A stretch of DNA of 64,000 nucleotides from a virus. A program made the translations under genes and the position numbers. Below the pieces are notes generated by a model that saw only the letters and a program-made list of their open reading frames with translations, did not search any database and was not told where the DNA came from. Shown piece by piece: positions 19,195 through 60,428 of this stretch (its first letter is position 1; the number at the start of each line of letters is the position of its first letter). The stretch covers positions 4,191-68,190 of the IMG/VR virus record IMGVR_UViG_3300010413_000023, one strand, 5' to 3'.

Positions 19195-19512
19195 TTACTC
19201 CCTCACTTTCTCCAGAATCGCAAACGGGCAATGATCGGCGTGGCTTCGTTCTGGCGGATTCTGTAACGCCAAACAGACATCACAAAAATAATATCCTCGT
19301 GGCGCATTCGTTGAACGCTCGAATGATATGTGTCGTTCCTCAAGCTGGACAAGTGCATCCTTCAGCCTCTCATTCTCTGCCCGCGCCTCCTCCAGCGCGG
19401 CGAGCAGGTCGGGGACAGAATCCATCATCGCAAAAACGTCAACACAAGTGACGCCCCACGTTTTAAGCGTTTTTACAGACTTCCTTATCTCGTCAATCCT
19501 GTCCTGGTTCAT
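19195..19512 (-). CDS. Hypothetical protein (Ead/Ea22-like coiled coil)
   Basis: VPDLLAALEEARAENERLK; C..C...H..HCP. Confidence 0.45.
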   Translation of the reverse strand: MNQDRIDEIRKSVKTLKTWGVTCVDVFAMMDSVPDLLAALEEARAENERLKDALVQLEERHISFERSTNAPRGYYFCDVCLALQNPPERSHADHCPFAILEKVRE

Positions 19513-19513
19513 C

Positions 19514-19837
19514 TTAGTCCCCTTTCTCTATTGCCTTTCTCAGCGTCTCGATTGCCCGACCATCCTCTATCATTGCCGCTGTAAATCTGAATACGCTCCA
19601 GCCCAACAATGTCGCCTCGTTGTACTTTTCGCAATCTTTCTCGAAGCCCCCACCGCGAACGTGCCGGCCGCCTGCCCACGTCCCGCCCTCGACCTCGGCG
19701 GCGATCATCTCGGTTGGCCACGCAAAATCAAAACGCCAGCGACGAGTAGGAGAAAAACGCCATTCGCGTTCCGGCGTTGGCAGCTCTGCTATGATATTGA
19801 TCTGGTAGTCGAGCATTTCCTCGGCGGTGGATTTCAT
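19514..19837 (-). CDS. PD-(D/E)XK endonuclease (DUF559/Vsr-like)
   Basis: EWRF..RRWRFDFAW....AAEVEGG.W..GRH...D.EKYN.A...GW..FRF. Confidence 0.8.
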   Translation of the reverse strand: MKSTAEEMLDYQINIIAELPTPEREWRFSPTRRWRFDFAWPTEMIAAEVEGGTWAGGRHVRGGGFEKDCEKYNEATLLGWSVFRFTAAMIEDGRAIETLRKAIEKGD

Positions 19838-20205
19838 ACCAACTCGCCCGCCTTTCTGACTTTCTCCACGAGCCTTCGCGTCCAGGACGGCAGCTCGTCC
19901 ACCCGTCGCTCCAATTCGCTCAACAGTTCAACCAGCGCCTTGGCGTATAGGGCGTCGTTGAACAGAATTTCGCGCCTGTTTATGGCATTGGCGAGTAGGC
20001 GGCGAATGGGGTGCTGGGTCACCATTCTCCCTCATTCAAACTTTTCGACCATATCGGCACCACAATGTCACAAAATAGAACATCCCCAAATCCCCAGGCG
20101 ATCAGATCGTCAGTCGAATAGTACGCCGTGCCGCGCTCGCCGGTCGTCTGGTCTAACGTCTGAACGAGGAACCGGCCGGCGTGGTTGGCGTGGCCGAGGG
20201 GGAAA

Positions 20206-21198
20206 TTACCAGTCATAACCTGGCACCTCCTCAGGCGGCGCTTGCCGTAACTCGTATTCGCACAATTTGAGGTACTGCGGCGCGAAATGCAAGGGCCACA
20301 TAAACCCGGCCTGCTCGAACCGTTGTTTGCTCATTTCCAGAATAAGCAATTCCTGCGTCACGTCGATCATTTCCCCGTTGATCTTGATCGGCGTGTCTCT
20401 CGGCTCAGTCAGCCATGGCCTCCATACCCCGAAATATTTGTCAACCGTCTGCTCGACGGCTGAGGACCATTGAACATCACCCGGCTGTGGGATCTTGATG
20501 TTGCGGATGTCCACCTGCCGACCTGCCTGCGCGCCCAGCCACACCGGGCAGCCAACGCGCATGGCCAGTTCTTTCACCCTGATAATGGCCTCTGATACCT
20601 GCGTAACGCGGTCGGCTACCACGTCAATCGGCACGATCTGGATGTAGTCCATACACAGCAGCGTCGGGGTTTTGCCATAATCCTCTTTCATTCGTTCGAT
20701 TGCCCGGAAAACGACCTCCGTTGTCATTCGTGGCATCCGAATGTCGGCACGGGCCAGGCTATGCCCGATCATCCAAACCGGCAATTGTACGCCGTGGATC
20801 GATTGCTCAATCACCGCCTGCATATCGGCGCGCCCCCACGCCACATCGGACGGGGTAAACTGTCCGCTGATGCCGAGAATGTTCCGCAGTTCCTCGATCA
20901 CCTGCTCCCAGGTCACATACACCACGCATTCAGTGTCTTGCGTCCCGCGTTCAACGATCCGCTTTGCCTCTGCCCGCGCCTGGAACGACAAAAGAGACGA
21001 TTTGCCGTGACCAGGACGACCAACAACGGCAGCCACATCACCGGGATGTAACGGGATCATTCGCTTGTCCACAACCGGAACGCCAAATGGAACGCCGGGC
21101 GTTGTGTGGATGCGCTCTGCCCAGTCTTTCCACGCCACGGCCTGTGCTGCGGGCGGGTAAACAAAATCGCGGTAATCGAACGTCCGGGCTTGGGTCAT
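20206..21198 (-). CDS. DnaB-like replicative helicase (C-terminal ATPase domain)
   Basis: Walker A GRPGHGKS, YVTWEQ, Walker B DYIQ, AQAGR, EQTVD, KQR. Confidence 0.85.
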   Translation of the reverse strand: MTQARTFDYRDFVYPPAAQAVAWKDWAERIHTTPGVPFGVPVVDKRMIPLHPGDVAAVVGRPGHGKSSLLSFQARAEAKRIVERGTQDTECVVYVTWEQVIEELRNILGISGQFTPSDVAWGRADMQAVIEQSIHGVQLPVWMIGHSLARADIRMPRMTTEVVFRAIERMKEDYGKTPTLLCMDYIQIVPIDVVADRVTQVSEAIIRVKELAMRVGCPVWLGAQAGRQVDIRNIKIPQPGDVQWSSAVEQTVDKYFGVWRPWLTEPRDTPIKINGEMIDVTQELLILEMSKQRFEQAGFMWPLHFAPQYLKLCEYELRQAPPEEVPGYDW

Positions 21199-34357: not shown

Positions 34358-34386
34358 TTGACAATAGACCTATTTTATGGTATGAT
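34358..34386 (+). promoter_or_regulatory. Sigma70 promoter for tnpB/CRISPR unit
   Basis: TTGACA-17-TATGAT with extended TG. Confidence 0.85.
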
Positions 34387-34389
34387 TTA

Positions 34390-34522
34390 GCTGTGAGACA
34401 AAGAGAAGCCGCGATCATTTTTGAATACCACAAAAGCACAGGCTTTTTCAACAAAGCCCGGTATCATAATTTTCTCTTTGTCTCACAGCAACAGAGAACA
34501 AAACAATGATACCGGGCTTTGT
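34390..34522 (+). promoter_or_regulatory. Structured 5' leader with two interleaved perfect inverted repeats
   Basis: 18-bp IR 34390-34407/34472-34489 and 17-bp IR 34451-34467/34506-34522 in A-B-A'-B' order. Confidence 0.75.
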
Positions 34523-34539
34523 CATGTTAGGCTGAAAAT

Positions 34540-35730
34540 ATGAGAGCATATAAAGCGGAACTCGATCCAAACAACAAACAAATTGGTTTTTTTCGTCAAT
34601 GCGCCGGCGCGTCCCGTTTTGTATTCAACTGGGGATTGGCTAGGTGGCAGCAATTATATGAGGAAGGGGAAAAGCCAAGTCGGTATGGTTTGTGTAAAGA
34701 GTTCAATTCAATCAAAGACGAGCAGTGTCCGTGGATTCGAGCCTTGCCCTATGCCGTTGTCGAGGCAGCCTTCTATGATCTTGGTTTTGCATTCCAGAAT
34801 TTTTTCAGACGTGTCAAACAAGGGGCCGATAAAGCTGGTTATCCAAAATTCAAACAGCGATCAGGGAAACGATCTTTTGCTGTGCGAAGCGCAACCGTTG
34901 AGCGCGACAGAATCAGGATCACCAGCCTGGGCTGGGTGCGTCTCAAAGAAAACGGCTATTTGCCTATCGAGGGCAAGCACACGGTATATGCTAGAATCTC
35001 AGAACGTGCCGGACGTTGGTATGTAGCTATTGGAACAGAACATGAAGCAGAGCCAACAGAACTGACCGATCTTGTAATTGGCATTGACCTGGGCCTCAAG
35101 ACGCGGGCCGTATTCTCAAATGGGACATTTTTTGATGCGCCCAAAGCGACATACGAGTATGAGAAAAAGCTGGCGCGGGCAAGCCGTGAACTGTCACGCC
35201 GGAAGCGGGGCGGGCAGAATTGGAAGAAAACAAAGCTCAGAGTTCAGCGCCTGCACGCCAAGATCGCAGACGTTCGCAAGCATTGGTTACACCAGATCAG
35301 CCATTATGCAACGTATGAGTTGAGGCCAAGCGTGATTGTCCTGGAAGACCTTAACGTGTCCGGGATGGTGAAAAACAGGCACTTGGCGAAAGCTGTCAGT
35401 GATGCTGGATTTTATGAACTACGGAGACAGATCGAATACAAAGCTGCGTGGCTTGGTATCGAGGTTGTCATAGCAGACCAATGGTTTGCCAGTAGCAAAA
35501 CGTGTTCTGTGTGTGGTTGGAAAAACACAGACCTGGCACTCTCGGATCGCGTTTTCAAATGCCCAGAGTGCGGGCTTGAGATGGACAGGGACTTGAATGC
35601 GGCGCATAATCTGGCCGCTTTAGTGAACCGTCAAACAGACGGGGATTGCCTGGGGAGTTGCGGTGATGTAATGTCGTACTGTGAACCAGGAACTCGGCAG
35701 CCGAAAGCAGGCATAAGAACCGGGATGTGA
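34540..35730 (+). CDS. tnpB: RNA-guided endonuclease TnpB / compact Cas12-like effector (CRISPR-associated)
   Basis: N-terminal RAYKAELDPN HTH; RuvC-I GIDLG, RuvC-II VLEDL, Zn finger CSVCG...CPECG, RuvC-III DRDLNAA all intact; 396 aa. Confidence 0.93.
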   Translation: MRAYKAELDPNNKQIGFFRQCAGASRFVFNWGLARWQQLYEEGEKPSRYGLCKEFNSIKDEQCPWIRALPYAVVEAAFYDLGFAFQNFFRRVKQGADKAGYPKFKQRSGKRSFAVRSATVERDRIRITSLGWVRLKENGYLPIEGKHTVYARISERAGRWYVAIGTEHEAEPTELTDLVIGIDLGLKTRAVFSNGTFFDAPKATYEYEKKLARASRELSRRKRGGQNWKKTKLRVQRLHAKIADVRKHWLHQISHYATYELRPSVIVLEDLNVSGMVKNRHLAKAVSDAGFYELRRQIEYKAAWLGIEVVIADQWFASSKTCSVCGWKNTDLALSDRVFKCPECGLEMDRDLNAAHNLAALVNRQTDGDCLGSCGDVMSYCEPGTRQPKAGIRTGM

Positions 35731-35774
35731 TCGGGGTAAATCCCGATCATCACCTACGAACTGTGGGATTCAAC
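35625..35774 (+). ncRNA. omegaRNA/tracrRNA-like scaffold overlapping tnpB 3' end
   Basis: ACCGTC..GACGG hairpin, GCCTGGGGAG...GTGAACCAGGAA TnpB right-end-like motif, hairpin 35728-35749, end ...TGTGGGATTCAAC complementary to the repeat; boundaries approximate. Confidence 0.65.
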
Positions 35775-35798
35775 GTGGGCTTAATAACTGCATATAGG

Positions 35799-36073
35799 GT
35801 TGAACCCACATGCGCGTGGGGGATTGGTCTTGCGATCACTCTTTACAGGTTGATCGAAAGTTGAACCCACATGCGCGTGGGGGATTGGGTGCATCCTGAC
35901 AAAGCGGCGGTTGTCTATGCGTTGAACCCACATGCGCGTGGGGGATTGGTGTAGCACGAAAAACGAACTTTGACAAAAGCCAGTTGAACCCACAGGCGCG
36001 TGGGAGATTGGGAAGCCGCATCAGAAATGGTGCGACTTTTGTCAGTTGAACCCACATGTGCATAGGTGACTGA
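35799..36073. CRISPR. CRISPR mini-array, 5 repeats (29 bp) and 4 spacers (32,32,33,33 bp)
   Basis: GTTGAACCCACATGCGCGTGGGGGATTGG at 35799, 35860, 35921; 2-mismatch copy at 35983; degenerate copy at 36045; internal CCCAC/GTGGG hairpin. Confidence 0.95.
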
Positions 36074-36101
36074 AAGCCGCACCCTTTCGAGCACGGCTTT
36101 C
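36072..36101. terminator. Possibly bidirectional terminator hairpin after array
   Basis: GAAAGCCG-caccctttcgagca-CGGCTTTC. Confidence 0.55.
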
Positions 36102-36219: not shown

Positions 36220-36741
36220 TTACGCTAAATGAAGCGCTTTTGTTTTTTCACCTGCCATGTATGACCACGGGCAATTGTCGGTTGTGAAATATCCGAGACG
36301 GTATAATTCAGCATCCACACGCTCCAGTGTTTTGCTGTGCAGTCTCATTTTAGGGCCATTGGCATCGATCCATGTTGCCATGTTCCAACTGCCAGTATAA
36401 GCACGGCTTGCGCCCAGCCAATCGACCACCATTTCCCGCACATAAATTTCAGGCATTGGCAAACAGCCGTTTTCAGCCTTACTGCCCCCATGACTATGAT
36501 CGCTACGTGTGATCCAATATTCCCAGTGATGTGGATTACAGTTTTGATGATGTAGCCACGCCGCTGCAAATCCATGTGGATCGCTTTTGTCTCCAAAGAA
36601 TTGCCGATCATAGTGTGGCAATTCTGATCTTGAGAATTTGCTTATATCATGGACGATAGCACGCCATAGCGGAAACCCTGTCCGAATTGCCGCGATCAAA
36701 ACGAACCATTTGTGTTTTAGTGTTGCAAAAAAGTATCTCAT
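36220..36741 (-). CDS. HD-domain-like phage protein (DUF5662-like)
   Basis: HKWFV...HDISKF...AWLHHQNCNPHHWEYW...MP..YVREMVVDW.GA. Confidence 0.75.
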   Translation of the reverse strand: MRYFFATLKHKWFVLIAAIRTGFPLWRAIVHDISKFSRSELPHYDRQFFGDKSDPHGFAAAWLHHQNCNPHHWEYWITRSDHSHGGSKAENGCLPMPEIYVREMVVDWLGASRAYTGSWNMATWIDANGPKMRLHSKTLERVDAELYRLGYFTTDNCPWSYMAGEKTKALHLA

Positions 36742-48693: not shown

Positions 48694-49017
48694 TCACCCT
48701 CGCAATCGTGCGAAATAGCGCACGTCAAGTACTAGCGCCCCGGCAGCCGATGCCAGCCACACCGCGAGCGCCTCTAATATATTCAAGTCCGTAAATGCGT
48801 AGACGGGAACGCACAGCACGAATGCCACGACAAGCGACATACACCAGAAACAATCGAACAGCGCGCCAATGACGTTATGCGGCACAATTCGCGCCCCGAG
48901 TTCGATGTCCTCCTCGACGCCAAGACGGTCACGCAGCCACTGGAACGGCGCTTCGGTGTACAGCAAAGATGACACCCGCCACGTCGCAAACGAGAGCAAA
49001 ACGAACCAGGCGATCAC
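48694..49017 (-). CDS. DUF1360-like membrane protein
   Basis: ATWRVSSLL..E.PF.WLR...LFDCFWCMSL. Confidence 0.7.
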   Translation of the reverse strand: MIAWFVLLSFATWRVSSLLYTEAPFQWLRDRLGVEEDIELGARIVPHNVIGALFDCFWCMSLVVAFVLCVPVYAFTDLNILEALAVWLASAAGALVLDVRYFARLRG

Positions 49018-51938
49018 CCAAACACCGCCTCTTGAATCTGTCCAAATGCCGCCGGGCCGATACCCTTGATGTCGCGGATCTTCTTGCCCTTATTGGCAAT
49101 CACGTCCTGCCTGATCGCGCCTTTTGTCTCGAACCCCGCCGCCAATAGCTTGTTGACAATCGTCTCGCTCAGCCCCAAAGACGCAACGGGAACGTCTTGC
49201 GTTGTGACGGGCGCTGGCGCTGGTTCTGGCTCCGGTTCTGCCCTCGCTGCACGGACGGGCACTTGCCCCTCGACAGGAAATGCCAACTTTTGCACGACGG
49301 GCGGCTTTTTGGGCAGTTCGGGCACCTTTTCTTCCGGCGCAGGTGGGATGTATCGCTCAAAATCCTTGTGACGCACCACCCACTCGTCGCCACGTTCCAG
49401 CGTCAAGATCGTACCCTGACTGAACGTGTATTTTTTGCCCGGCACGGCTTTGGAGTTCATCGAGCGCGTGCCCTGTTGTGGGGCAATGCAGATCGCCATC
49501 ATTTGCTCGCCGTCGGGCAGCATGTCGCCCTGGAACTCTAGCGGCTTGATAACTTTCGCCGGTGCTTTTTTACCACATCCTTTACATGGCATGTCCTTTT
49601 CCTTTCTCGCAATGTATGCGTATACACTATAAATTCTCTCTTTGACCTCGGGCGTGCCGTACCCGGCATTGTCACCATCACTTTTGCTCGAACCCCCCGC
49701 AAGCGATGTCCAGTGCCGGTACACACCCCACGGAAATGATTCGAGATACGCAGCCCCGATGCCCAGCATGTGCATCTTGAGGCCGAATATCCAATCTTCC
49801 CATTCCACGTCGTCGTCGTAGCCCCCCACCGCCGCCCACCATTCTTTCGCAAAGAGGCACGTATCCTGATAGATCGCCTCTTTGTTGATGTGCTCCCACG
49901 TCCAGCGCCCCGAGTGATAGTAGACGGTTTTACCAGGCACGTCCTCGGTGAAACAATCGGCATAGACCAAACAGTCTTGGTTAGCTAGCCACGTCTGATA
50001 GAATAGGCGCAACGTGCCAGGATACATCAAGTCATCGGCGTCAAGGGGCACGATCAAGGGGGCTTTTGCCGCCTCAGTCGCCAGGTTGCGGGCATAGGCT
50101 GCTCCCTTTCGCCCACCGGTGTCCACGACTTTTACCCACGGATGCCCCATTGCCGCCACGTCCAGCGGCTCGCCGGTGTCGTTTGCCACGATGCACTCAA
50201 ACTCACGGAACGTCTGGGCATACACGCTGTCAAGCGCATCCATCAAATACAGGTCGTGCCCCGGCCCCACAGGGATGATCACGGCGATGTGCGGCTGTTC
50301 GTAGGAGCGCACGGGCCACGAATCGTTCGGGGCTTTGCCCAAAAACCCGAACGGCGTCAGGTCTGGAAATGCCCGCCATGGGTAATAGAAATTCCACGAC
50401 AGCGGGCCCTCGGGGTCATCCTCGCCCCCCTCTTTGGCTGTCTTGTTCTCGCCGTGCCAGCGGTAGACGAAAACGGGTTCATCCACCAGGTATTCACACC
50501 GCAGCCCCGCCGACATCGCCCGGCACCAGAACTCGGCGTCCTCATTTTTGCGCTGCCTCTGCCGGTAGCCACCAATTGCTCGCGTCGAACGTGTCCGGGC
50601 AATGCACGTGGACGGGATCTGGTTGGCGTGGTCAAGTTGCGCCTTGTAGTCCACCGCGCCGCCGTTCGTCTCCTTTTTACCGTAAATGCTATACATTCCC
50701 GTCGCTACGTCTACCCACGGGCGTGCCTCTATGGCGTCGTACAGTTTGCGAATGCCACTCAGGGCCATCACGTTATCGGCGTCCAGGTTGATCCAGTACC
50801 TGCCATGTGCCGCGTCGTGTCCGGTGTTGAGTGCCGCGCACAAGCCCCCGTTCCGATAGTGACGAATAACGCGCAGTCCCTCATACGCCTTCAGCACGTC
50901 CTGGGTGTTGTCCGTGCTCGCATCGTCAACGACGATCACTTCCATTGACGGCGCGTCCGTTTGCGCTTTGAGCGAGTCCAGGCATTCGGGCAAATAGTGG
51001 GCATAGTTGTATGTCGGGATAATGACGCTCACTTCAACTGGATATTGATCCGCCTGCCACGCCTCATAGATAACCTGTGCGTACTGAGCCATTAGGTCGC
51101 GCCATTGGTAGCGGGCCTGAACGTGCATGCGCCCATTGTTGCCCAGCTCGGCGCGATTGTCCAGGCAAAAGTGCAGCCCGCGCAGCAGGTCATCATAGTC
51201 GCCCGGCTTGGCCAGATATCCCGTTTTGCCGTGGATGACGAGTTCGCCCGTTGCGCCCCAGTCCCAACCCAGGACGGGAATGCCGAGAGCCATCGCCTCG
51301 CGGCTGGCAATGTCGCCCGTCTCGCGGGCCGTCGCCAGCCACACCGATGCCCTGGCCAGCGTCTTTTTGAACTGATCGTGTGGCTGCGCGCCGATCACCT
51401 TGACGTTTTGCGCGGGCCGTCCGTATGTGGTGACGAACTGCGTATTGAGCGCCCTCATTGCCAGCTCGTTGACGGGCCTCGGATCGCTCACCACGTCAAC
51501 GCGGGGTTTTGCCCACAGGACGTACCCGCCAGGCGCTTGCGGTTTGAACTCGTCAAAGTCGATACCGTGCGGGATGACATCCACCCGCTTTTTCATATCG
51601 CGTCGGATCGGCTGGGCAACCCACTCGGACGGGACGATGATCCGGTGCGCCTCGCGTAATGCCTCGATCACCTGGATGTTGTACTGCCAGTAGTCGCGGT
51701 GCCAGTCCATATCCCCGGTCCAATAAAGCCCGTGATTGACGCAAATGAGCGGCTTTTTCGTCTGGACAAGCGAACCAGCATGAACCATCACGACATCGGC
51801 GCCAGCTTCTGAATTGACAAGCTCAATCCCGTATTCAGGCAACCACCTGCCCTGGGCATTGATCACGCGCCAAATGCCGCCAGAACCGACACCATCCTCG
51901 GTATATTCGCTTGGGTGAGGTGAGATAAAAAGTTTCAA
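49014..51938 (-). CDS. Multidomain glycosyltransferase (GT-B/GT4 + two GT-A/GT2) with C-terminal HhH
   Basis: VIPHGID...EAMALGIPV (GT4); VSVIIPTYN..VVDDASTD..LDAD (GT2); VIIPVGPGH..LDADD (GT2); IKGIGPAA (HhH). Confidence 0.9.
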   Translation of the reverse strand: MKLFISPHPSEYTEDGVGSGGIWRVINAQGRWLPEYGIELVNSEAGADVVMVHAGSLVQTKKPLICVNHGLYWTGDMDWHRDYWQYNIQVIEALREAHRIIVPSEWVAQPIRRDMKKRVDVIPHGIDFDEFKPQAPGGYVLWAKPRVDVVSDPRPVNELAMRALNTQFVTTYGRPAQNVKVIGAQPHDQFKKTLARASVWLATARETGDIASREAMALGIPVLGWDWGATGELVIHGKTGYLAKPGDYDDLLRGLHFCLDNRAELGNNGRMHVQARYQWRDLMAQYAQVIYEAWQADQYPVEVSVIIPTYNYAHYLPECLDSLKAQTDAPSMEVIVVDDASTDNTQDVLKAYEGLRVIRHYRNGGLCAALNTGHDAAHGRYWINLDADNVMALSGIRKLYDAIEARPWVDVATGMYSIYGKKETNGGAVDYKAQLDHANQIPSTCIARTRSTRAIGGYRQRQRKNEDAEFWCRAMSAGLRCEYLVDEPVFVYRWHGENKTAKEGGEDDPEGPLSWNFYYPWRAFPDLTPFGFLGKAPNDSWPVRSYEQPHIAVIIPVGPGHDLYLMDALDSVYAQTFREFECIVANDTGEPLDVAAMGHPWVKVVDTGGRKGAAYARNLATEAAKAPLIVPLDADDLMYPGTLRLFYQTWLANQDCLVYADCFTEDVPGKTVYYHSGRWTWEHINKEAIYQDTCLFAKEWWAAVGGYDDDVEWEDWIFGLKMHMLGIGAAYLESFPWGVYRHWTSLAGGSSKSDGDNAGYGTPEVKERIYSVYAYIARKEKDMPCKGCGKKAPAKVIKPLEFQGDMLPDGEQMMAICIAPQQGTRSMNSKAVPGKKYTFSQGTILTLERGDEWVVRHKDFERYIPPAPEEKVPELPKKPPVVQKLAFPVEGQVPVRAARAEPEPEPAPAPVTTQDVPVASLGLSETIVNKLLAAGFETKGAIRQDVIANKGKKIRDIKGIGPAAFGQIQEAVFG

Positions 51939-52744
51939 GTCGCCCCCTCACTTTCTTGCAGCGCGATGTGTTTTTTGATGTATCGTAGCAACCCATCACC
52001 CGCGTCTATGTCGAACCTATCCATCAAGAAAGGAAACACGCGCTCATCCTTGAACACGCTCAGTTCGATCTCGAATCCATCCCCGAAATCGCCAATAGCA
52101 AGATTGATGCGTGATGCTCCTGTTTCTGCCCTGATCTTTTTTAGCGTATCGATCCAGTAGTCGGTGCAAAGATGGCTGCCGGAACGATCTTTTAATGCTC
52201 GCAATTCGTCAGCCGTGATCATGAGTTCTGTTCCTCGCTTTCCCGCAACCATTCCGGCAATGGCCCGTCAATCGTTTCGCGGTATCGCGCCTTCATTCTG
52301 TCAACGTCTTTGACGATCCAATTTGCGAATGATGCCCCGTTTTCCGGTTCGTCAAAACAAGAACTGATCGAGATCAGATCGAATGCCACGGTGATTTTAC
52401 AGTGAAAGTCATCCGCAAGATCGGAAACCTCAAGAATGACGCTCTTGGCTCCAGTTCGCTTTTTGATGTCATTTAGTTCGTCAATGCCTAACATCGAAAC
52501 CCCCGTTCTTTCTTTTCTTGTTCGTTTGCTGTGATAACGCTATCTGCTATTCGTATATCGTCGGAAATCTCAATCACTGCCTTAACCCAATACGTGATGG
52601 ATGTTCCGTCTCGATAATATCCAAACCTGTTCTTTGCGAAAAAGCTCGCATGGGCAACCGCGTCATCGTAATTCATTGCCACCAGATAGATCGACGGGGT
52701 AGTATCAGGCCCGAGACGAATTTCATAGAGTTTACCTGTCGCGA

Positions 52745-53080
52745 TCATTGCCCCCGTCCTTTCTTTTCTGTTTTAATCCATCCGTTGCGGAACAACACAT
52801 CTGTCAAAGCCAACGACAACATATCGAGATCGTCGTGTTGTTCGTCGCCTTGCAAAGATTTTATTTTGAAGGCGTCCACAATGCCATGCAATACTTCATG
52901 GAGCAAAGTTCCCCACACGTCCTCATCAGACAAATCGTCTGCATAGATGCGAATCGAACGTGTCCAGTAGTCAAGCTGTCCCCATAACGACTCGCGTTTG
53001 TAAATGTCCACATCGGATGGCTTTTCGACGTACTCAATCGTATACTCTATGCCCAGAATCACAACGCTATCTGGTCTCAT
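52745..53080 (-). CDS. Small HEXXH metallopeptidase-like phage protein
   Basis: LWGQ.DY....IRI.......TLLHEVLHGI. Confidence 0.7.
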   Translation of the reverse strand: MRPDSVVILGIEYTIEYVEKPSDVDIYKRESLWGQLDYWTRSIRIYADDLSDEDVWGTLLHEVLHGIVDAFKIKSLQGDEQHDDLDMLSLALTDVLFRNGWIKTEKKGRGQ

Positions 53081-53576
53081 TCCCCCGTCCTTTCAGTTCC
53101 TTCTTGATCGCGTGACACATCGCCATGTGTACGTCCTCAAGCACCTCGTAATCGGTTGACTTGGCGCGAATGTGGTACACGTCTGGATAGTTCGTCTTGA
53201 GCATGTCGCTCGTGAACAATACCATCCGTTCGCCGACGGCATAGGCCAAGGTGGCAATATTCGCGCTTGTCCCGCTGCCCGAAAAGGCGATGACGAGCGC
53301 TTCCAATTCCTGCGCTTGCTCCGCGAATGAATAACTATGCCCGCTGTCATTGTCGATCTGCGTAAATTTTGACGGTGAGAGCAGGTCGAATGCCGGGATG
53401 CCAATGCTTCTCAAGTCCGCAGCGAAATGGATCGCCGTCGCCGCGCTGCCCCCATTTCCGCACGTCACCACCATTTTGGCGGTTTCGATCAGGTTGCACA
53501 CGTGCTCCAATTTATCGACCGCGAATGAATCATTGAGAGCGTCTTTCAAATCATAAAAATGTTCTGCTATAGACAT
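53067..53576 (-). CDS. gmhA: Phosphoheptose isomerase (SIS domain)
   Basis: CGNGGSAATAIHFAADL, FSGSGTSANI, EDVHMAMCH. Confidence 0.85.
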   Translation of the reverse strand: MSIAEHFYDLKDALNDSFAVDKLEHVCNLIETAKMVVTCGNGGSAATAIHFAADLRSIGIPAFDLLSPSKFTQIDNDSGHSYSFAEQAQELEALVIAFSGSGTSANIATLAYAVGERMVLFTSDMLKTNYPDVYHIRAKSTDYEVLEDVHMAMCHAIKKELKGRGNETR

Positions 53577-53594
53577 CTGTCGCCTTTCTACCGC

Positions 53595-54185
53595 TTACAC
53601 GCGGCTGAAAACCTGGATATTTCGAGGCAGAAAATCAAACGCCTCGCTCACGATATTTTGAAATGCGTGACGGGTTTCGCCCGTCATCGCCGCGTTTAAG
53701 TTGCACCGGTAGCCACCCAGCAGCCCGCGCCAGTAGTCAGGCGGCTGCAAGTTGATGTGTCCCGTCCCGTCCTGCCCAGGTGGCGCGCTGGAAAATAGCA
53801 CGTTATCCCCTGCGTGCCTGGCAATCGTCCAGGCCAATGTGCCCGCCGCCGGTCGTGGCAAGTGTTCCGCCACTTCGAGACAGATCACCAGGTCGAACGC
53901 CTGCCCAAAATCGGCGGGCTCCGTCAGGTCGTGCTGGGTAAACGTGATGCACTCCGGTATGAATGCCCGCGCCTCCTGGTACAACTCGACTGCCCAACAC
54001 GCCGCGCCCATTTGATGAAATGCGAAAGACCACCAGCCGTCACCCGCTCCCAGGTCGAGCACCTTCTTTGGCAGTCCATACGTGCCAACCCACCAGCCCG
54101 CCATAAATTCGATCCATCTGTGCTGCCATTCCAGAGACTTGAACCATTCATCTGATTTATAGTACGATGTGTCGTAATCGCTCAT
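53595..54185 (-). CDS. Class I SAM-dependent methyltransferase
   Basis: VLDLGAGDG, FDLVICLEVAEHL, SAPPGQ.G.GHIN. Confidence 0.85.
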   Translation of the reverse strand: MSDYDTSYYKSDEWFKSLEWQHRWIEFMAGWWVGTYGLPKKVLDLGAGDGWWSFAFHQMGAACWAVELYQEARAFIPECITFTQHDLTEPADFGQAFDLVICLEVAEHLPRPAAGTLAWTIARHAGDNVLFSSAPPGQDGTGHINLQPPDYWRGLLGGYRCNLNAAMTGETRHAFQNIVSEAFDFLPRNIQVFSRV

Positions 54186-54338
54186 TGCGCGTCCTCATAG
54201 TCGTCGAGTCGCCACCACGTCTTGCATTGCGGACAAATCCAGTTTGACCACGCCTCATCTTCAATGCCCATGCAATCCGCTTCCATTTCTGATTCAGTTC
54301 CGACCCATCCACATTCAGGACACTTGTACTGTTTAGTA

Positions 54339-55058
54339 TCATAATCGCTCATAAGTCGCCTTTCTAGCGTACATATTCCCAAAATACACAGTGCCGTGCT
54401 CTGCCAGCAGCCGCATAATCCGATCTGTCATCTCGTCATACCCGCACCATCCGATTGGTACGAGGCTCTCGCCCAACACGTTGCAAAACTCGGCCTGTGG
54501 CTCGATCTCCAAAATCCGCGCCATACACGCGCACGCCTGTTTCCAGAAATACGGATGGAACTCGAACGATAGCGGCACGAGCTGTGAGAGTCCGCATAAT
54601 ACTTGATGCTCGTACCCTTCCACGTCAATCTTGATGAACGAGGGCACGCCATAACGGGCAATCAGGCTGTCAAGCGTGACGATTTTGACCGTCTCCGTCC
54701 AATCCTTTGGTGTGTTCGCCCAGGGGCCGCCTTGCTGCCAATAGTGATCCGGTACGAGCGTCGAGATCGTCGTACCGCCATAACATGCCATCTCAGCTGT
54801 TCCCGCCTCAGATCCACACGCTACCTCGATAACCTCGACCTGATCGTCGTCGATGAATGTAGCCCTCAATTGCGCCGCGCACGCCGCTTGCGGCTCGACG
54901 GCAATTACCCGCGCATTCAAGCACCTATAGGCCCACGTCATTTTGCCGATGTTCGCCCCAATGTCGAATACCAACGCGCCGGGCTGGATGAACTCTCCCA
55001 GGATGCCGGGAAAGTTTTTGTTGCTCCAGTAATCGGGCCAGTCATTCGGGATCGGCAT
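54339..55058 (-). CDS. FkbM-family methyltransferase
   Basis: FDIGANIG, AVEPQ, TLDSL, FIKIDVEGYE. Confidence 0.9.
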   Translation of the reverse strand: MPIPNDWPDYWSNKNFPGILGEFIQPGALVFDIGANIGKMTWAYRCLNARVIAVEPQAACAAQLRATFIDDDQVEVIEVACGSEAGTAEMACYGGTTISTLVPDHYWQQGGPWANTPKDWTETVKIVTLDSLIARYGVPSFIKIDVEGYEHQVLCGLSQLVPLSFEFHPYFWKQACACMARILEIEPQAEFCNVLGESLVPIGWCGYDEMTDRIMRLLAEHGTVYFGNMYARKATYERL

Positions 55059-55767
55059 TTTCGACCTCGACTTTCTCAAACGCCACCACATGCCCAACGA
55101 TGCCAACCTGCTCCCAGCCGTCGGTCATCAGATCGTCAATCGCCCGCGTGACATCGTGCTTTGGATCACGGTAATCGTGAAACGCCATCACGCCGCCCAC
55201 CTTGACTTTATCCCGCCAGGCCATTATGTCAGCCCTGACGCCCGCGTCGGAATGCGAGCCGTCCACGTATACCATGTCTAGTTCGCCTTCCACTTCGCTC
55301 ACCATTTCCGCCGAGTCACCCGTCAGGTATGTATACCTCCACTTCGGGATCTTGGCGAAATTGACGTACTCTCGCGTGTCCTCATCTTCTTTCAGGTCAA
55401 TGCTCCACACCAGGGCATTGCCGTGCAGCGTCAGGCCGTACAGGATCCGCAGCAGGCTATTGCCCAGTCCCGTGCCGATCTCGACGATGCGGGCCGGGTC
55501 GGGGCACGACGCCGCCAAGCCCTCGATAAATGCGCCCTCATAATAGCTGCAATACGTCACGTCTCGCGGGGGCAGTCGTAGCACTGCGGGCGAAAAGTCC
55601 ACTTCTGACAAGACGATAAACCGGTGTAAACTCGCCACCCACAGGTCATCGTCGTCAATCTCGAATGGCACGTTTTTCTGCACCAACAGTTTTTCACCTG
55701 GATGCGCCCGGCTGTTGACAGAAAAACTCCCGCTCCGTTCACCTTTGTAAACAAGCCACTTTACCAT
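55042..55767 (-). CDS. Methyltransf_24-like SAM methyltransferase with extra N-terminal domain
   Basis: IVEIGTGLG.S, YVDGSH, GGVMAFHDY. Confidence 0.85.
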   Translation of the reverse strand: MVKWLVYKGERSGSFSVNSRAHPGEKLLVQKNVPFEIDDDDLWVASLHRFIVLSEVDFSPAVLRLPPRDVTYCSYYEGAFIEGLAASCPDPARIVEIGTGLGNSLLRILYGLTLHGNALVWSIDLKEDEDTREYVNFAKIPKWRYTYLTGDSAEMVSEVEGELDMVYVDGSHSDAGVRADIMAWRDKVKVGGVMAFHDYRDPKHDVTRAIDDLMTDGWEQVGIVGHVVAFEKVEVENADPE

Positions 55768-56288
55768 AATATCCTTTCATAGGCGATCAATCGCCCGACC
55801 TGCCCGAACAACCGCCATTGGTGCTGTACCGCCAACTGTTCGACGGCCTGCATTACTCCGAGATGTACGAGGCAATAGTCATCAAAAGCCATTATCCCGC
55901 CAATCTTGACCAGCGGGCCAAATGCCAGGATGTCGGCACGAACCCCCTCGAACGTGTGCGCGCCGTCCACGAAAACCAGATCGGCCATCACCTCACACTG
56001 CGCTGCCACGTTGACCGACGGCATCTGGTAGAACGTCACGCGCTCGTCTGGTATTCCCGCGTCTTTGATACGGGCGCGCCCCTCGACGCAATCGCCCACG
56101 TCCACAGTGTAAATATGCCAACCCCGATGCAATGCCAGCCCGTAGGCCATCGCCGTCGTACTGTTCCCCTTGCCTGTGCCGATCTCGATTGCCACTGCCG
56201 GATCGGGCAAACTTGACGCGATGCCCTCCAGCCACGCAGCCTCGGCACGGGGTAGAAAGTCGGCGTCATTGACGGGTAATCTGTTCAT
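55761..56288 (-). CDS. Methyltransf_24-like SAM methyltransferase
   Basis: IEIGTGKGNS, FVDGAH..EGVRADI, GGIMAFDDY; paralogous to neighbour. Confidence 0.85.
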   Translation of the reverse strand: MNRLPVNDADFLPRAEAAWLEGIASSLPDPAVAIEIGTGKGNSTTAMAYGLALHRGWHIYTVDVGDCVEGRARIKDAGIPDERVTFYQMPSVNVAAQCEVMADLVFVDGAHTFEGVRADILAFGPLVKIGGIMAFDDYCLVHLGVMQAVEQLAVQHQWRLFGQVGRLIAYERILW

Positions 56289-57070
56289 GCTGGCCCACAC
56301 GCTTTCAGGTAGTCGTGTGCCCTGCCCACGAGATGCGCCCAGGGCGCGTGTACCACGCCCGGGCCAATCGGAAACAGGATTTGCGGCCCGTTCTCGCCAA
56401 GTGGCGAATTGATGTACTTGCCGCTCATACCCACCTCTGCAAGCCCCGGATTGACGTTTTCTGGATGCCAACCGTATGCCTCAAAAAAGCGAATGTGCGC
56501 CACGTATGGCTGCGTAGACACAATGTACGTGTCTCGCGGGCCATAGGGATTGTTAAGGCACCAGTCACGAATCAGGCGATACCACATATACGAACCCCCA
56601 CAGCGGGGCAGATTGTAATCCACGACGCAGCCGTTGTTGCCCGGCACGCGATAGGACAGGCGAACAAAGCCGACCTCGGTGTGTGCGTCCAATACGTCCA
56701 CCATCGGGCGGAGATCCAACTCACGGAACAGCGCCCAATCGTCGAAAACTAAGGCGTGTATGTCCGCGCCTTGCTCTTTGGCGAACTTGATGCCGACGTT
56801 GATGTTCCCGCCGGTATTGAACGTGCCGGGCGCGGTGTTCATCGCGTGCGCCGTTATGTCTGGAGCAAATTCAGCAAACCGGGCCTTGAGCACCTCGACG
56901 TGATCGCGCCCTGTGTCGTCATCCGTCTGCCCGCTGCCATCGTCGCAAATGTGAAAGTGCAGGTTGGGGTATTTGAGATACCGTTCCAGACTTTCAATCG
57001 TCGCCAGTGACGCGGCGGTGCGTTTATAGGTTGCAAAGAGAACCCAAACGGGTGGCCAGTTGTTAGACAT
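56285..57070 (-). CDS. GT-A (GT2-like) glycosyltransferase
   Basis: ATYKR, ICDDGS, N.N.G, FDDW. Confidence 0.75.
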   Translation of the reverse strand: MSNNWPPVWVLFATYKRTAASLATIESLERYLKYPNLHFHICDDGSGQTDDDTGRDHVEVLKARFAEFAPDITAHAMNTAPGTFNTGGNINVGIKFAKEQGADIHALVFDDWALFRELDLRPMVDVLDAHTEVGFVRLSYRVPGNNGCVVDYNLPRCGGSYMWYRLIRDWCLNNPYGPRDTYIVSTQPYVAHIRFFEAYGWHPENVNPGLAEVGMSGKYINSPLGENGPQILFPIGPGVVHAPWAHLVGRAHDYLKACGPA

Positions 57071-57294
57071 CTTGCGCCTTCTTTAATTTATCTATTGGGA
57101 AATCGGGCAATCGGATTGTTTTGCCACAAGCTCCACAGTCAAAGCAGGCACACAAATCCTCCGTTTCGCCAGCGTAGAAACAGGCAAAATTGCCAACCCG
57201 TAAATCGCTCTCGTCAATTTCTAGCAGAGCGTCACAGTATTGGCACCTTATCGTTGTTCTAAAAACGCTTGGCAGTTCAAGTATTTTCATTCCC

Positions 57295-57807
57295 TTACAC
57301 TTTCCTTTCCCATCGCTCACCCTTGTCGGGCGGCTCGTGTGTTCGTGAAATCTCGGCGCACAGTCGCGCCTTTTGCTCCGGCTCGTCGCCATTCCAGACG
57401 ATCCGCAATTCTCTCACCTGTCGCATCCGGTCACAGTCGAGCATCTGTGTCAAAATTTCGTACTCGCTGCCGTTGCAGTCCAGGTACAGCAGGTCAACCT
57501 CGGCAATGTGGGCATAGACGAACCAGTGATTCATCGACACAACCGTGCAACCCTCGCTCGGCTCACCGCTGCCGTGCAGCGTCGCGCTCGAACCATTGCA
57601 CAGATGCAACGTGTCCGGCCGGTCGTTGCCGCCGATAGCGAATGGTAGAAGCGTCACGTTGTCAAGCCCTTCCAGCCGCTTGAATGCGATGCCCCGCATC
57701 GTCGTTGACGGCTCGAATGTCTGGACGATGACGCCGGGGGCTTGCGCTGCCTGCCATGCCCACGAACCATCGCCCGAGCCGACTTCGAGAATAAGACGGC
57801 TATCCAT
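57295..57807 (-). CDS. FkbM-like methyltransferase
   Basis: LEVGSGDG, FEPS, LYLDCNGSEYEIL. Confidence 0.75.
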   Translation of the reverse strand: MDSRLILEVGSGDGSWAWQAAQAPGVIVQTFEPSTTMRGIAFKRLEGLDNVTLLPFAIGGNDRPDTLHLCNGSSATLHGSGEPSEGCTVVSMNHWFVYAHIAEVDLLYLDCNGSEYEILTQMLDCDRMRQVRELRIVWNGDEPEQKARLCAEISRTHEPPDKGERWERKV

Positions 57808-58258
57808 CTATCACCACACTTTCCATGATCCGCTTTTCCTCGGCCTCCCAAATTCGCAGCCTCATCGCCGAACTAGACCAATTATGCTGCCGTTCGTGCC
57901 AATGGATGCGTTTTGCCGCGTCGGGGGCCGTGATCTGCTTTCCCTTCCAGTCGCTGCCGATGATCCGCACGTCCGGCTGTAAGTCCTCAAGGATCGCCTC
58001 AAGTTCGGCTTCGGTGTTGTAGACCTTGATGTCAGCCACGTACTTGATGGCCTGGAGCACCATAATGCGCTCGTCGATGGTTTGCACCGGCTCGTTTTTG
58101 TCGGGCCGTTCGTACTGCGGGTTGGCGTGCAGGCCCACAACAAGGATGTCGCACTGCCCTGCCGCATCGGCCAGCATCAGGATGTGGCCGGGGTGCAAAC
58201 AGTCAAAGGCTCCACAGGTGAACCCGACGACAGGGACCGCAAATGCCACGCTTCCCAT
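57800..58258 (-). CDS. Cytidylyltransferase-family nucleotidyltransferase (TagD/HldC-like)
   Basis: GAFDCLHPGH (HxGH), LVVGL, K..PVQ...ER, GSDW, SSSAMR. Confidence 0.85.
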   Translation of the reverse strand: MGSVAFAVPVVGFTCGAFDCLHPGHILMLADAAGQCDILVVGLHANPQYERPDKNEPVQTIDERIMVLQAIKYVADIKVYNTEAELEAILEDLQPDVRIIGSDWKGKQITAPDAAKRIHWHERQHNWSSSAMRLRIWEAEEKRIMESVVIDG

Positions 58259-58926
58259 GCTCCGTGGTTCCACGTCATCTCGTGAGTCTTGGCAAGCGCA
58301 CCTTGTATCCCCACCTGAATCGCATTCGCATTTTCCACGACACTGTGCCATTGTAGCATTATCCTCTCTATTCGCCGGATCAAACCCGATCCGATCACGT
58401 ATGGTAAAAGCTCGAACTCCATCCCCTCGATATTGATCGCCGCCAGGGCAATGCGCTCGATCTTTTCCCGTTCGATAAACTCGCGGACGTTGACGATCTC
58501 GGCGTCCCGGCCCGTCTGTCCACCGTATTTCCCGCCTGGTATGAATGACGCCCCGTCCCGCTGATCGTCGTACAGTTTGAACGTGCCCGACGTGACGCCC
58601 AGCCCGAAATTGTGCAAGTGGACGTTCTCGAATTTGCCCAGCCGCCCCTTGGCGACATTGTATGCCCGCACTGCTGGCTCGAATCCGTGATAAACGCACC
58701 CTGGGTACTTTTTCACCATCCGGCTGATCCATTCGCCCTCGTATGAACCGACATCGAACACGACATCGCCGGGGGCCAGTTCGTCCCAGACGCAATACCG
58801 CGTGTTCTCGCCGTCGCATTCATACCAGCCGCCTGACCATACGTACCACTCAGGCCACGTCGGATCTCGCTTTTTCCAGAGCTTTAGTTTAGCTTGCGTT
58901 TCTGGAGCGATACCAGTTGATGACAT
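58177..58926 (-). CDS. FkbM-like methyltransferase
   Basis: FDVGSYEG, GFEP, INIEGMEFELL. Confidence 0.8.
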   Translation of the reverse strand: MSSTGIAPETQAKLKLWKKRDPTWPEWYVWSGGWYECDGENTRYCVWDELAPGDVVFDVGSYEGEWISRMVKKYPGCVYHGFEPAVRAYNVAKGRLGKFENVHLHNFGLGVTSGTFKLYDDQRDGASFIPGGKYGGQTGRDAEIVNVREFIEREKIERIALAAINIEGMEFELLPYVIGSGLIRRIERIMLQWHSVVENANAIQVGIQGALAKTHEMTWNHGAWEAWHLRSLSSGSPVEPLTVCTPATS

Positions 58927-60230: not shown

Positions 60231-60428
60231 TGTTCCAACTTTCTAGATAATAAACTTCTCTGTTGAGGAAAGCGGCATTGTCAAGCATGTGCTGTTCGTC
60301 ATCCACAACCAGATCCCTTGAATTATCAAATATCTTTTGTAACGCTTCCTGGTGTGGTTCCATTCTTTCCCGATTGATGATGGCTAGACGCCAACCGCCT
60401 CGGCACTTACGTATTCCAAACACGTCTT

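Follow-up and report, generated by a model that had tools for sequence, protein, structure and literature searches.

A phage TnpB gene with a short CRISPR array downstream: a candidate multi-guide RNA-guided nuclease

Introduction

What is a TnpB gene doing directly in front of a short CRISPR array in a phage genome? The pair lies in a window of 64,000 nucleotides (positions 4,191 to 68,190 of IMG/VR record IMGVR_UViG_3300010413_000023), which is the stretch of DNA analysed here, and the 68-kb phage genome is complete. TnpB genes are frequent in phages, with 427 matching INPHARED records, and some 40–50 independent TnpB–array associations are in print. As to how an array comes to stand beside TnpB, a PNAS 2023 survey leaves two routes, duplication of an omegaRNA segment or insertion near a pre-existing array. 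A reading made from the letters of the window alone (the sequence-only reading) had proposed a domesticated TnpB tied to a CRISPR array. We compared the locus with its relatives and with known systems, and we consider it reasonably likely, judging from sequence comparison, that a domesticated, non-mobile TnpB module serves the phage as a multi-guide RNA-guided DNA nuclease.

Results

An ISDra2-like nuclease without mobility genes

The tnpB product (table 1) matched Pfam HTH_OrfB_IS605, OrfB_IS605 and Cas12f1-like_TNB, and scored 304.8 bits on NCBIfam NF040570 guided_TnpB (cut-off 100) over profile positions 1–388 of 389. It missed the equivalog-level profiles of mobile-element TnpBs (NF038281, 297.9 bits with cut-off 425; NF038280, 241.7 bits with cut-off 350). 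The RuvC triad D183/E269/D351 and the zinc finger C322/C325/C341/C344 (CxxC...CxxC) were invariant in a 28-sequence alignment and sit in the GxDxG, xEDL and DRDxNA motifs of the structure alignment, where the ISDra2 TnpB structures 8H1J/8EXA are co-linear with residues 2–359 (189 bits). Profile scores, invariant residues and structure alignment thus agree with the description of a 396-aa TnpB with intact triad and zinc finger given in the sequence-only reading.

That reading had also noted the absence of tnpA, cas1 and cas2, and profile scans extended this to the whole 68,190-bp genome: no Y1 TnpA (PF01797) or serine recombinase (PF00239) matched anywhere, the record holds no Cas1 or Cas2, and TnpB is present in one copy. 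The upstream regions of 14 family loci were unlike one another, with no common or recognisable left end, and at loci L054 and L056 just 14 nt separate tnpB from the upstream gene. Pfam detected no Cas family among 43 flanking ORFs from 11 of 13 family loci, a scan that left out two ORFs of L017 and L054; L047 has no flanking ORFs. A search for an empty insertion site by way of the neighbouring DUF5662 gene returned 80 loci at no more than 55% identity, none of them close enough to mark out an insertion.

Table 1. Features of the tnpB–array module (positions in the window).
Feature	Position	Strand	Basis or remark
Sigma-70-type module promoter, TTGACA-17-TATGAT	34358–34386	+	11/12 matches, extended −10 TG
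Structured 5′ leader, two interleaved 17–18-bp hairpins	34390–34522	+	Folding
tnpB, 396 aa, ISDra2-like RNA-guided nuclease	34540–35730	+	ORF, profile matches, alignments
Internal promoter-like site, TGGACA-17-CATAAT	35582–35610	+	10/12 matches; just 5′ of scaffold RNA
omegaRNA-like scaffold, stems S0, S1, S2 and hairpin 35726–35752	35630–35750	+	Conservation, covariation
'Repeat 0', remnant of ancestral omegaRNA terminal hairpin	35751–35774	+	Homologous to L021 terminal hairpin
Linker, A+T-rich, leader-like, ends ..CTGCATATAGG, abuts repeat 1	35775–35798	+	Motif comparison
Mini-CRISPR array, five 29-nt repeats, four spacers	35799–36073	+	
Repeat R1	35799–35827	+	Identical to R2, R3
Spacer S1, 32 nt	35828–35859	+	
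Repeat R2	35860–35888	+	Identical to R1, R3
Spacer S2, 32 nt	35889–35920	+	
Repeat R3	35921–35949	+	Identical to R1, R2
Spacer S3, 33 nt	35950–35982	+	
Repeat R4, 2 mismatches	35983–36011	+	
Spacer S4, 33 nt	36012–36044	+	
Repeat R5, degenerate	36045–36073	+	
Hairpin AAGCCG...CGGCTT past last repeat, possible transcript end	36074–36101	+	Read from sequence

Promoters and leader

The near-consensus promoter that had been assigned to tnpB as its own stood up to inspection (table 1), and similar promoters were read by eye upstream of tnpB in other family members. The 5′ leader folded with a minimum free energy of −48.3 kcal/mol (z = −4.89), a value matched by one of 200 shuffles. It is unique to the phage, with nothing similar in the relatives' loci compared, and Rfam gave no credible match, returning only sub-threshold, microRNA-like chance matches. 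The internal promoter-like site could yield a separate transcript of scaffold plus array, as suggested by L021, where a scaffold copy without an ORF has a promoter-like site of its own and is followed by a three-repeat array. The hairpin past the last repeat was not called by a terminator scan, its T-run being weak.

A conserved scaffold RNA and a short array

The omegaRNA-like scaffold overlaps the 3′ end and stop codon of tnpB and is conserved at the nucleotide level with L017, L018, L020 and L021. In a consensus structure from ten scaffolds, 16 of 21 pairs showed compensatory changes, which indicates that the scaffold RNA is under structural selection. A visual check of the conserved 'NAAxNL' coding stretch for a sequence that could form a pseudoknot with the repeat tail gave no consistent pairing.

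The array begins 68 nt past the tnpB stop codon, and the 29-nt repeats and four 32–33-nt spacers described earlier were borne out. Spacers measured 32–33 nt in 17 of 17 cases from eight family arrays. The array of L017 is irregular (spacers of 34, 29, 32 and 23 nt), as is one upstream of tnpB in L021, an irregularity more in keeping with duplication or decay than with an integrase. The motif ..CTGCATATAGG that ends the linker also precedes repeat 1 in L017, L010 and L047, and ..TTTAGT or ..TTTAGG takes that place in L018, L054 and L036; the linker is a putative leader. In IMG/VR the 29-nt repeat, searched for exactly or with tolerance in the loop and one stem base, matched nothing besides the phage itself, and a 22-position degenerate version retrieved the L010 contig only. 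Across 185,579 species genomes a tolerant repeat pattern, too strict for repeats as divergent as those of L010, gave two single chance matches inside coding sequence and no arrays.

Between scaffold and linker, positions 35761–35774 could base-pair with the repeat's 5′ half, which makes them a candidate anti-repeat. The anti-repeat/repeat duplex reached −33.4 kcal/mol, lower than every one of 300 shuffles (−23.5 ± 3.0), and also appeared in the predicted fold. We rejected a plain tracrRNA anti-repeat as the identity of this segment: comparison with L021 shows it to be a remnant of the ancestral terminal hairpin, and its predicted pairing with the repeat stands. The signal was significant in the phage locus only, marginal in L019 (19 of 300 shuffles) and L054 (25 of 300), and missing in six of nine arrays, which argues that trans pairing is not a family-wide feature. 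Palindromic repeats pair with each other anyway.

The array recurs beside related TnpBs

A tree of 78 TnpB relatives placed the phage protein in a clade of 12 rows (SH-aLRT 96). Eight of these have an array of 29-nt repeats immediately 3′ of tnpB and oriented like it; of the other four, one has a repeat at the contig end and three end in one repeat-like hairpin with its tail. One further array belongs to L036, in a pair neighbouring the clade, so that the conserved effector–array adjacency typical of V-U candidates was found in eight of 12 clade members and in L036 outside it. The other 64 rows, 50 of which have at least 330 nt downstream, carried none. A script flagged L073 (19/22 at period 63); by eye this was not a CRISPR-like repeat and was counted as none. 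The array survey covered relatives other than the closest proteins, P0002–P0012 (66–84% identical, on short contigs). Lack of the array in close homologues had been named beforehand as a refuting outcome, and what we found instead was its recurrence 3′ of tnpB in the clade. The array-bearing TnpBs of the clade are 45–64% identical and stand in unrelated genomic contexts, and the neighbours of the phage locus and of L010 are not homologous and differ in their orientation to the module. Taken together, these comparisons argue that the link between tnpB and array is not chance.

The repeat itself is homologous to the end of the omegaRNA, matching its terminal hairpin and tail. In L018, L020 and L036 repeat 1 sits at the terminal-hairpin position, after a scaffold of 136–144 nt; single-guide scaffolds measure 134–159 nt in L021, L056 and L025, and 175 nt in L024. 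Because the phage scaffold is 54 nt longer than that of L021, its repeat 1 falls outside this canonical register. With recurrent linkage and the homology of repeat and omegaRNA end, the proposed tie between a domesticated TnpB and a CRISPR array gains support.

Single-guide forms are nested among array forms in the tree. L054, with an array, and L056, with a single guide, encode TnpBs 98% identical, have identical flanks and differ at one of the last 14 nt; this allelic pair is distinguished only by array versus single guide. A Mantel test linked TnpB distance to distance over the final 14 nt (r = 0.54; none of 5000 permutations reached it), and the 3′ half of the repeat, by this measure, tracks the TnpB phylogeny. 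Plain co-inheritance would also give a Mantel correlation.

Spacer targets

The sequence-only reading had proposed a database search with the spacers, and it brought no protospacer to light in INPHARED, in PLSDB or in IMG/VR, where exact 22–24-mers of spacer 1 from the phage, L010 and L054 hit only L010's own contig. The phage's own genome held no spacer match at up to eight mismatches, and 32 spacer queries from ten arrays found no target in 1.3 Mb of relatives' loci. Therefore no PAM and no target class were derived.

Comparison with known systems

The closest counterpart in architecture is Cas12r, found in Lalka phages of Thermus. Together with a 29-bp-repeat array this TnpB-like nuclease is reported to interfere with plasmids and phages, and its authors propose for it type I-E-mediated spacer supply and a role in mobile-element conflict (bioRxiv 10.64898/2026.04.20.719267). 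Both are phage-encoded nucleases derived from TnpB, and behind each comes a short array whose 29-bp hairpin repeats are partly degenerate and whose spacers measure 31–33 nt; cas1 and cas2 are missing, and Cas12r has strong expression of its own. Lalka27a (PQ109076) has a 29-nt repeat and a 61-nt period. However, BLASTP against LalCas12r and LlkCas12r gave a best E of 3, that is, no detectable sequence similarity, which indicates likeness in architecture, not descent. At 564 aa LalCas12r is longer than the 396-aa phage protein, and on guided_TnpB it reaches 48 bits where the phage protein has 305. The gap to the Cas12r array is given as 15 bp, with crRNA alone sufficient, whereas the phage locus retains a conserved omegaRNA-like scaffold of about 170 nt. 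Cas12r is also called thermophile-specific by its authors, and the only holder of the full phage DNA is labelled a marine sediment metagenome. This metagenome is probably the phage's own source sample; among the sequencing runs listed for the sequence there was no RNA run.

TranC nucleases such as LaTranC and CauTranC9 (Jin et al., Cell 2025) are described as TnpB-sized or slightly enlarged and standing beside short arrays. Their guide comes from an omegaRNA split in two, a tracrRNA scaffold and a crRNA that bears the repeat, and Caudoviricetes carry some of them. An anti-repeat in the scaffold that pairs with the crRNA repeat characterises TranC; the phage locus has a candidate for one, although this is not general in its TnpB clade. 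LaTranC (9JFO/9JFQ) matches the RuvC half alone (79 bits, residues 236–363), and repeats of the tested TranC clades are reported as 32–38 bp, against 29 in the phage. Models named for other Cas12 types fit in part: PADLOC's Cas12u4 and one of its Cas12f models match residues 43–363 at 262 and 260 bits, the likeness to Cas12n/V-U4 and Cas12f, but without the N-terminal part of the profiles. Structure 9J09, named Cas12n in the literature, matches residues 198–367 alone (101 bits), and the NCBIfam scores are 76 bits for Cas12f2 (cut-off 450) and 70 bits for C2c8 (cut-off 350).

ISDra2 TnpB is the best full-length structural relative, equal in size and catalytic motifs, and its scaffold RNA likewise extends across the gene's 3′ end, with a hairpin and tail coming last before the guide. 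The phage module differs in having no tnpA, left end or extra copies, and in an array of four spacers replacing the single guide.

Type I-E arrays have 29-nt repeats and 32–33-nt spacers. The phage array resembles them in its 29-nt repeat with internal hairpin and 7–8-nt 3′ tail ending in G, in its 32–33-nt spacers and in its degenerate terminal repeat, and its repeat-then-spacer orientation fits a 5′ PAM system. In contrast to type I-E, Cascade, Cas3, Cas6e and Cas1–Cas2 are absent nearby and throughout the phage, and the repeat varies in its 3′ half with the TnpB lineage.

These comparisons argue that the module is of the same kind as Cas12r and TranC and probably represents a separate lineage, closest to ISDra2 TnpB. 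An independent, undescribed recruitment of CRISPR had been suggested; the lineage is unrelated to Cas12r by sequence, but 'undescribed' says too much, as the kind of system is already in print with Cas12r and TranC.

Discussion

Proposed mode of action

We read the module as most likely a type V-like, 'TranC/Cas12r-like' system at a very early stage. The promoter at 34358 would drive a single transcript of tnpB, scaffold and array, to which the 35582 site may contribute, and TnpB would bind the scaffold. Each 29-nt repeat would give a hairpin and a 3′ tail (..GTGGGGGATTGG). In single-guide relatives the hairpin and the tail ..GTGGGGGATTGG end the omegaRNA directly before the guide, so the first 16–20 nt of each spacer would be expected to act as guide. 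The 3′ part of the hairpin remnant (35761–35774) may anneal to each repeat over its 5′ half and join scaffold and crRNA in trans, making up a split guide. The RuvC site would cut matching DNA adjoining a 5′ motif. Given the 29-nt repeat and 32–33-nt spacer geometry, the spacers probably come from a type I-E integrase of the host acting in trans, with Cas1–Cas2 inserting them. The putative use would be conflict with competing phages or other mobile elements.

Other explanations

The I-E geometry could also mean that the virus-borne mini-array feeds a host type I-E Cascade, through Cas6e processing and Cascade–Cas3, and that TnpB is a historical neighbour that leaves the spacers unused. A 29-nt hairpin repeat ending in G, 32–33-nt spacers, a final repeat that has degenerated and A+T-rich sequence ahead of repeat 1 do look like an ordinary array with its leader, and viral mini-arrays without cas genes are known from the literature. 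We nevertheless think this unlikely: the repeat's 3′ arm and tail vary with the TnpB lineage, and single-guide siblings have a matching omegaRNA end, and arrays always stand directly 3′ of a scaffold RNA, even one without an ORF. The repeat was not found in an array beside cas genes either, a weak test with so strict a pattern. Dual use of the array by Cascade and TnpB is possible. Similarly doubtful is an array that arises as a by-product, in which the I-E-like terminal hairpin of the omegaRNA occasionally gains units through an integrase or replication slippage, and TnpB uses at most the unit at the canonical position, the remainder being neutral and short-lived. Such turnover would suit the shortness of the arrays (2–5 repeats), the allelic array and single-guide forms L054 and L056, the irregular arrays of L017, L021 (upstream) and L110, and the nesting of single-guide among array forms. 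It sits badly with arrays that persist at 45–64% protein identity with well-kept repeats, with identical repeat copies (three in the phage, four in L054, three in L036), with a strong promoter of the module's own and with a leader-like motif conserved before repeat 1; Cas12r reportedly uses downstream units.

A guided TnpB that binds or nicks phage or host DNA, controlling expression or replication in the manner of nuclease-dead TnpB derivatives, has precedents in print, namely domesticated regulatory TnpBs (PMC10705468) and Sigma-TnpB, and the module lies at the early/late boundary, adjoining a divergent consensus promoter. With a catalytic triad that is intact and invariant in the clade, and spacers that find no match in the phage's own genome at up to eight mismatches, we consider a regulator very improbable. 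Hardly credible is the landing of an IS200/IS605-type mobile element beside a pre-existing phage array with no functional link. TnpB is common enough in phages for this (the 427 INPHARED records), and the PNAS 2023 survey leaves insertion near pre-existing arrays possible, but the phage has neither tnpA nor a second tnpB copy, the family's upstream regions share no left end and leave only 14 nt in L054/L056, and the linkage recurs in the clade with matching register and tail.

Origin of the array

A more tentative idea is that in this clade CRISPR arrays may have arisen more than once, and not long ago, out of the hairpin at the right end of a phage-borne ISDra2-like TnpB element. The terminal hairpin and tail of the omegaRNA would resemble a type I-E repeat enough for insertion by host Cas1–Cas2, and a single-guide omegaRNA would become a multi-guide array, the full scaffold being kept in cis or as an ORF-less gene. 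If true, this would be a stage preceding the protein growth and clean tracrRNA/crRNA split of TranC and Cas12, and one array would by design serve both a type V-like effector and an adaptation module of class 1. The clade offers direct test material for the origin of arrays, with array and single-guide forms as close kin, an allelic pair, a repeat in omegaRNA-end register and a free-standing scaffold gene. It would also carry over to an unrelated TnpB lineage the idea proposed for Cas12r, in which a phage nuclease borrows the type I-E integrase of its host. At 396 aa, and with guides that may be short and crRNA-like, the nuclease is worth considering as a compact editor.

The tnpB gene had been called the only convincing plus-strand gene of the window. 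Six other plus-strand ORFs of at least 150 aa are without a Pfam match, which agrees with this, but the statement is too strong for 19328–20218 (+, 296 aa), which occupies a gap among minus-strand genes and could be a real gene.

A tnpB gene followed by a repeat array in a tailed phage

The window (bases 4191-68190) belongs to a virus record of 68,190 bp that has direct terminal repeats and is rated complete. The genome is that of a tailed phage, with large and small terminase, a DnaB-like helicase, a helicase loader, a primase and RecT as well as several methyltransferases and a block of sugar-nucleotide enzymes, and nearly all its genes lie on the minus strand. The sequence-only reading had called tnpB the only convincing plus-strand gene. 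Its strand is as stated, but its sole status is soft: a 296-aa ORF that matched no family occupies an interval between minus-strand genes, cannot be dismissed, and may be a second plus-strand gene.

The 396-aa protein scored 304.8 bits against the NCBIfam model guided_TnpB (cut-off 100), and its residues 2-359 aligned with the ISDra2 TnpB structures 8H1J and 8EXA (189 bits). D183, E269, D351 and the four zinc-finger cysteines did not vary across 28 aligned relatives. Five 29-nt repeats follow, starting 68 bases past the stop codon; three copies share one sequence, another departs from it at two positions and the final copy is degenerate, and the spacers measure 32, 32, 33 and 33 nt. Gene, catalytic and zinc-finger residues, promoter and repeats were therefore correctly described in the sequence-only reading. 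It had also found no cas1, cas2 or tnpA in the window, and this holds for the whole phage genome, in which we detected a single TnpB copy and no Cas1, Cas2, Y1 transposase or serine recombinase.

A perfect promoter faces away from the module, so that the module sits between early and structural regions, at a pair of divergent promoters. In the tnpB leader, the two interleaved hairpins cannot both form easily, and the pair might act as a switch regulating the module; nothing like it was found in the relatives or in Rfam. Two relatives carry a small ORF between a strong promoter and tnpB, which by eye is helix-turn-helix-like in L017 and ribbon-helix-helix-like in L020.

Positions of the module and of related features (window coordinates unless a relative locus, L, is named)
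Feature	Position	Strand	Remark
Promoter pointing away from module	34231-34202	-	12/12 consensus; towards small early-type ORFs
Module promoter	34358-34386	+	11/12 consensus positions, extended -10
tnpB leader	34390-34522	+	two interleaved long hairpins, 18 + 17 bp; z = -4.9
tnpB, 396 aa	34540-35730	+	three TnpB Pfam domains
Degenerate ancestral-hairpin copy	35751-35774		
DUF5662 gene	36220-36741	-	adjoins module
DUF5662 gene	L021:4148-4765		adjoins module
ORF, 296 aa	19328-20218	+	
Sugar-gene block	49014-63535	-	
Small ORF upstream of tnpB	L017:240-430		
Small ORF upstream of tnpB	L020:2860-2990		
ORF-less scaffold copy	L021:1355-1650		upstream of tnpB
Linker, four repeats, trailer	L054:4300-4660		
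Terminal hairpin	L056:4280-4320		
tnpB locus of a different lineage	L110:2955-4620		

Array linkage across the clade

We collected nine tnpB-bearing loci from IMG/VR and 79 from metagenomes (best 80 of 575 confirmed stretches, 31-64% identity); a large protein collection held more than 120 further proteins with 54-84% identity to the window TnpB. Arrays were called by script and checked by eye, as direct repeats matching at 19 or more of 22 bases with a period of 55-68, at most 500 nt past the stop codon. A maximum-likelihood tree built from the 78 proteins with 300 aa or more placed the window TnpB in a 12-row clade (SH-aLRT 96). A same-strand array lies directly 3' of tnpB in eight of these rows (window, L017, L018, L019, L020, L010, L047 and L054), so homologues do keep the array, a check that the sequence-only reading had proposed. 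L023 shows one repeat before its contig ends, and a downstream array is absent from L021, L056 and L024. One extra array was found outside the clade, in L036, which forms a neighbouring pair with L025. The remaining 64 rows yielded none (50 with at least 330 nt of downstream sequence, 14 with too little to tell).

Repeats are 29 nt long in all family arrays. All 17 spacers in eight arrays measure 32-33 nt, and the L017 array is irregular (34, 29, 32 and 23 nt). Genomic context varies: the large neighbours of the window module and of L010 are not homologous, and orientation to the neighbours differs. We listed flanking ORFs for 13 family loci and scanned 43 of them, from 11 loci, against Pfam (none came from L017 or L047, and one L054 flanking ORF was not included). 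Phage-type genes were seen, and no Cas family was detected among these 43 ORFs.

Correspondence of the repeat to the omegaRNA end

Nucleotide-level conservation among clade members covers the last 100 nt of tnpB and the sequence beyond. The consensus fold of ten such scaffolds has 21 base pairs, 16 of them with compensatory changes. One of the ten is an ORF-less copy in L021 with its own promoter-like site (9/12 plus TG), which leads directly into three degenerate repeats separated by spacers of 32 and 38 nt; the L021 tnpB downstream has a normal single-guide 3' end. Retention of a scaffold that lacks a reading frame and once more leads into an array is an argument that selection acts on the RNA and that the RNA works with the array.

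In L021, L056, L024 and L025, the conserved 3' RNA region ends in a single hairpin and tail built as in the repeats. In L021, for example, the terminal hairpin and tail (..CACCCACACAATGTGGGTGATTGG) are followed by unrelated sequence, which is the classic order of omegaRNA scaffold, then guide. Repeat 1 occupies the terminal-hairpin position in L018, L020 and L036, where the element ends 136-144 nt from the GCCTGKGGAG motif; among the four single-guide forms, the hairpin ends 134-159 nt from this motif in L021, L056 and L025, and 175 nt from it in L024. L054 and L056 represent alternative alleles of a single locus: their TnpBs are 98% identical, and their upstream and downstream flanks are the same. 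The place of the single 23-nt terminal hairpin of L056 is taken in L054 by about 390 nt made up of linker, four repeats and trailer; their last 14 nt differ at one position, and the 5' halves differ. Across 14 loci, the more distant two TnpB proteins were, the more their repeats or terminal hairpins tended to differ over the final 14 nt (Mantel r 0.54, reached by 0 of 5000 permutations); this relation, being expected also from shared descent alone, shows co-inheritance and not function. A degenerate copy of the ancestral hairpin persists in the window. Between it and repeat 1 lies an A+T-rich linker of 24 nt with CTGCATATAGG at its end, a motif also seen ahead of repeat 1 in L017, L010 and L047.

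Relation to known systems

Cas12r of Thermus Lalka phages is reported as a TnpB-like nuclease with a 5' ARG PAM; its short array has degenerate 29-bp repeats and 31-33-nt spacers that target integrative elements, and the authors propose spacer insertion by a host type I-E system (10.64898/2026.04.20.719267). We confirmed the repeat geometry on the Lalka27a sequence, whose Cas12r is a 564-aa protein without similarity to the window TnpB (E = 3). TranC clades are described with repeats of 32-38 bp and a TnpB-sized member in a Caudoviricetes genome (10.64898/2026.03.27.714800), and LaTranC structures match only the RuvC half of the window TnpB. Nearest in sequence is the ISDra2-type TnpB. In a myxophage Cas12m array, the repeat reportedly resembles the host I-E repeat (10.64898/2026.09.14.751636). 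Published surveys count 40 V-U groups, or about 50 independent TnpB-array associations, and leave the array origin open between omegaRNA duplication and insertion beside an array (PMC10691335, PMC12669027); our clade may already be among these groups.

The family is best filed as a new lineage within a known class, the phage-borne CRISPR-associated nucleases that derive from TnpB and have type I-E-like arrays. The TnpB-CRISPR interpretation of the sequence-only reading is supported in its core by the recurrent array linkage in the clade and the repeat-omegaRNA correspondence. What makes the family particularly valuable is that forms with an array and forms with a single guide are close kin, and that the scaffold is retained.

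Possible guide assembly

From anatomy, comparison and precedent we infer a multi-guide mechanism. For array units past the first, the repeat-plus-spacer RNA would have to join the scaffold in trans, or act alone. We compared the best scaffold-repeat duplex with those of 300 shuffled scaffolds. The window duplex reached -33.4 kcal/mol against -23.5 +/- 3.0 kcal/mol, and none of the shuffles was equally low. Pairing in this duplex is with the remnant hairpin, which at its 3' end (GUGGGAUUCAAC) complements the 5' half of the repeat. L019 and L054 gave a weak signal at the same relative place (19/300 and 25/300 shuffles), and six arrays gave none in this comparison, which makes a TranC-type anti-repeat plausible for the window phage and no family rule. 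Hairpin repeats by nature also pair with one another. An alternative would be guide use of the crRNA by itself, as reported for Cas12r, whose 44-nt crRNAs need no tracrRNA (10.64898/2026.04.20.719267); another is that only the first array unit would be used as guide. A look-up of sequencing runs turned up no RNA run containing the sequence.

Neighbouring genes and a further tnpB locus

L110 belongs to a different TnpB lineage (38% identity) and adjoins a DUF5662 gene. Downstream of its tnpB, short repeats consisting of the tail alone (..ATGGATGGTTGG) recur irregularly with guide-length gaps, and a second, ORF-less copy of the scaffold comes next; by its layout the locus resembles a multi-guide omegaRNA array born of duplication. 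A DUF5662 gene also adjoins the module in the window and in L021, at differing orientation and distance, and the family is widespread among IMG/VR phages (at least 80 loci). Elsewhere in the window, a long block holds glycosyltransferase, methyltransferase, nucleotide-sugar epimerase, aminotransferase, heptose-phosphate kinase/adenylyltransferase-like and HAD genes. In L023 and L025, TnpB has sugar genes of a similar kind on its flanks, and these genes may have a role in DNA or surface modification.
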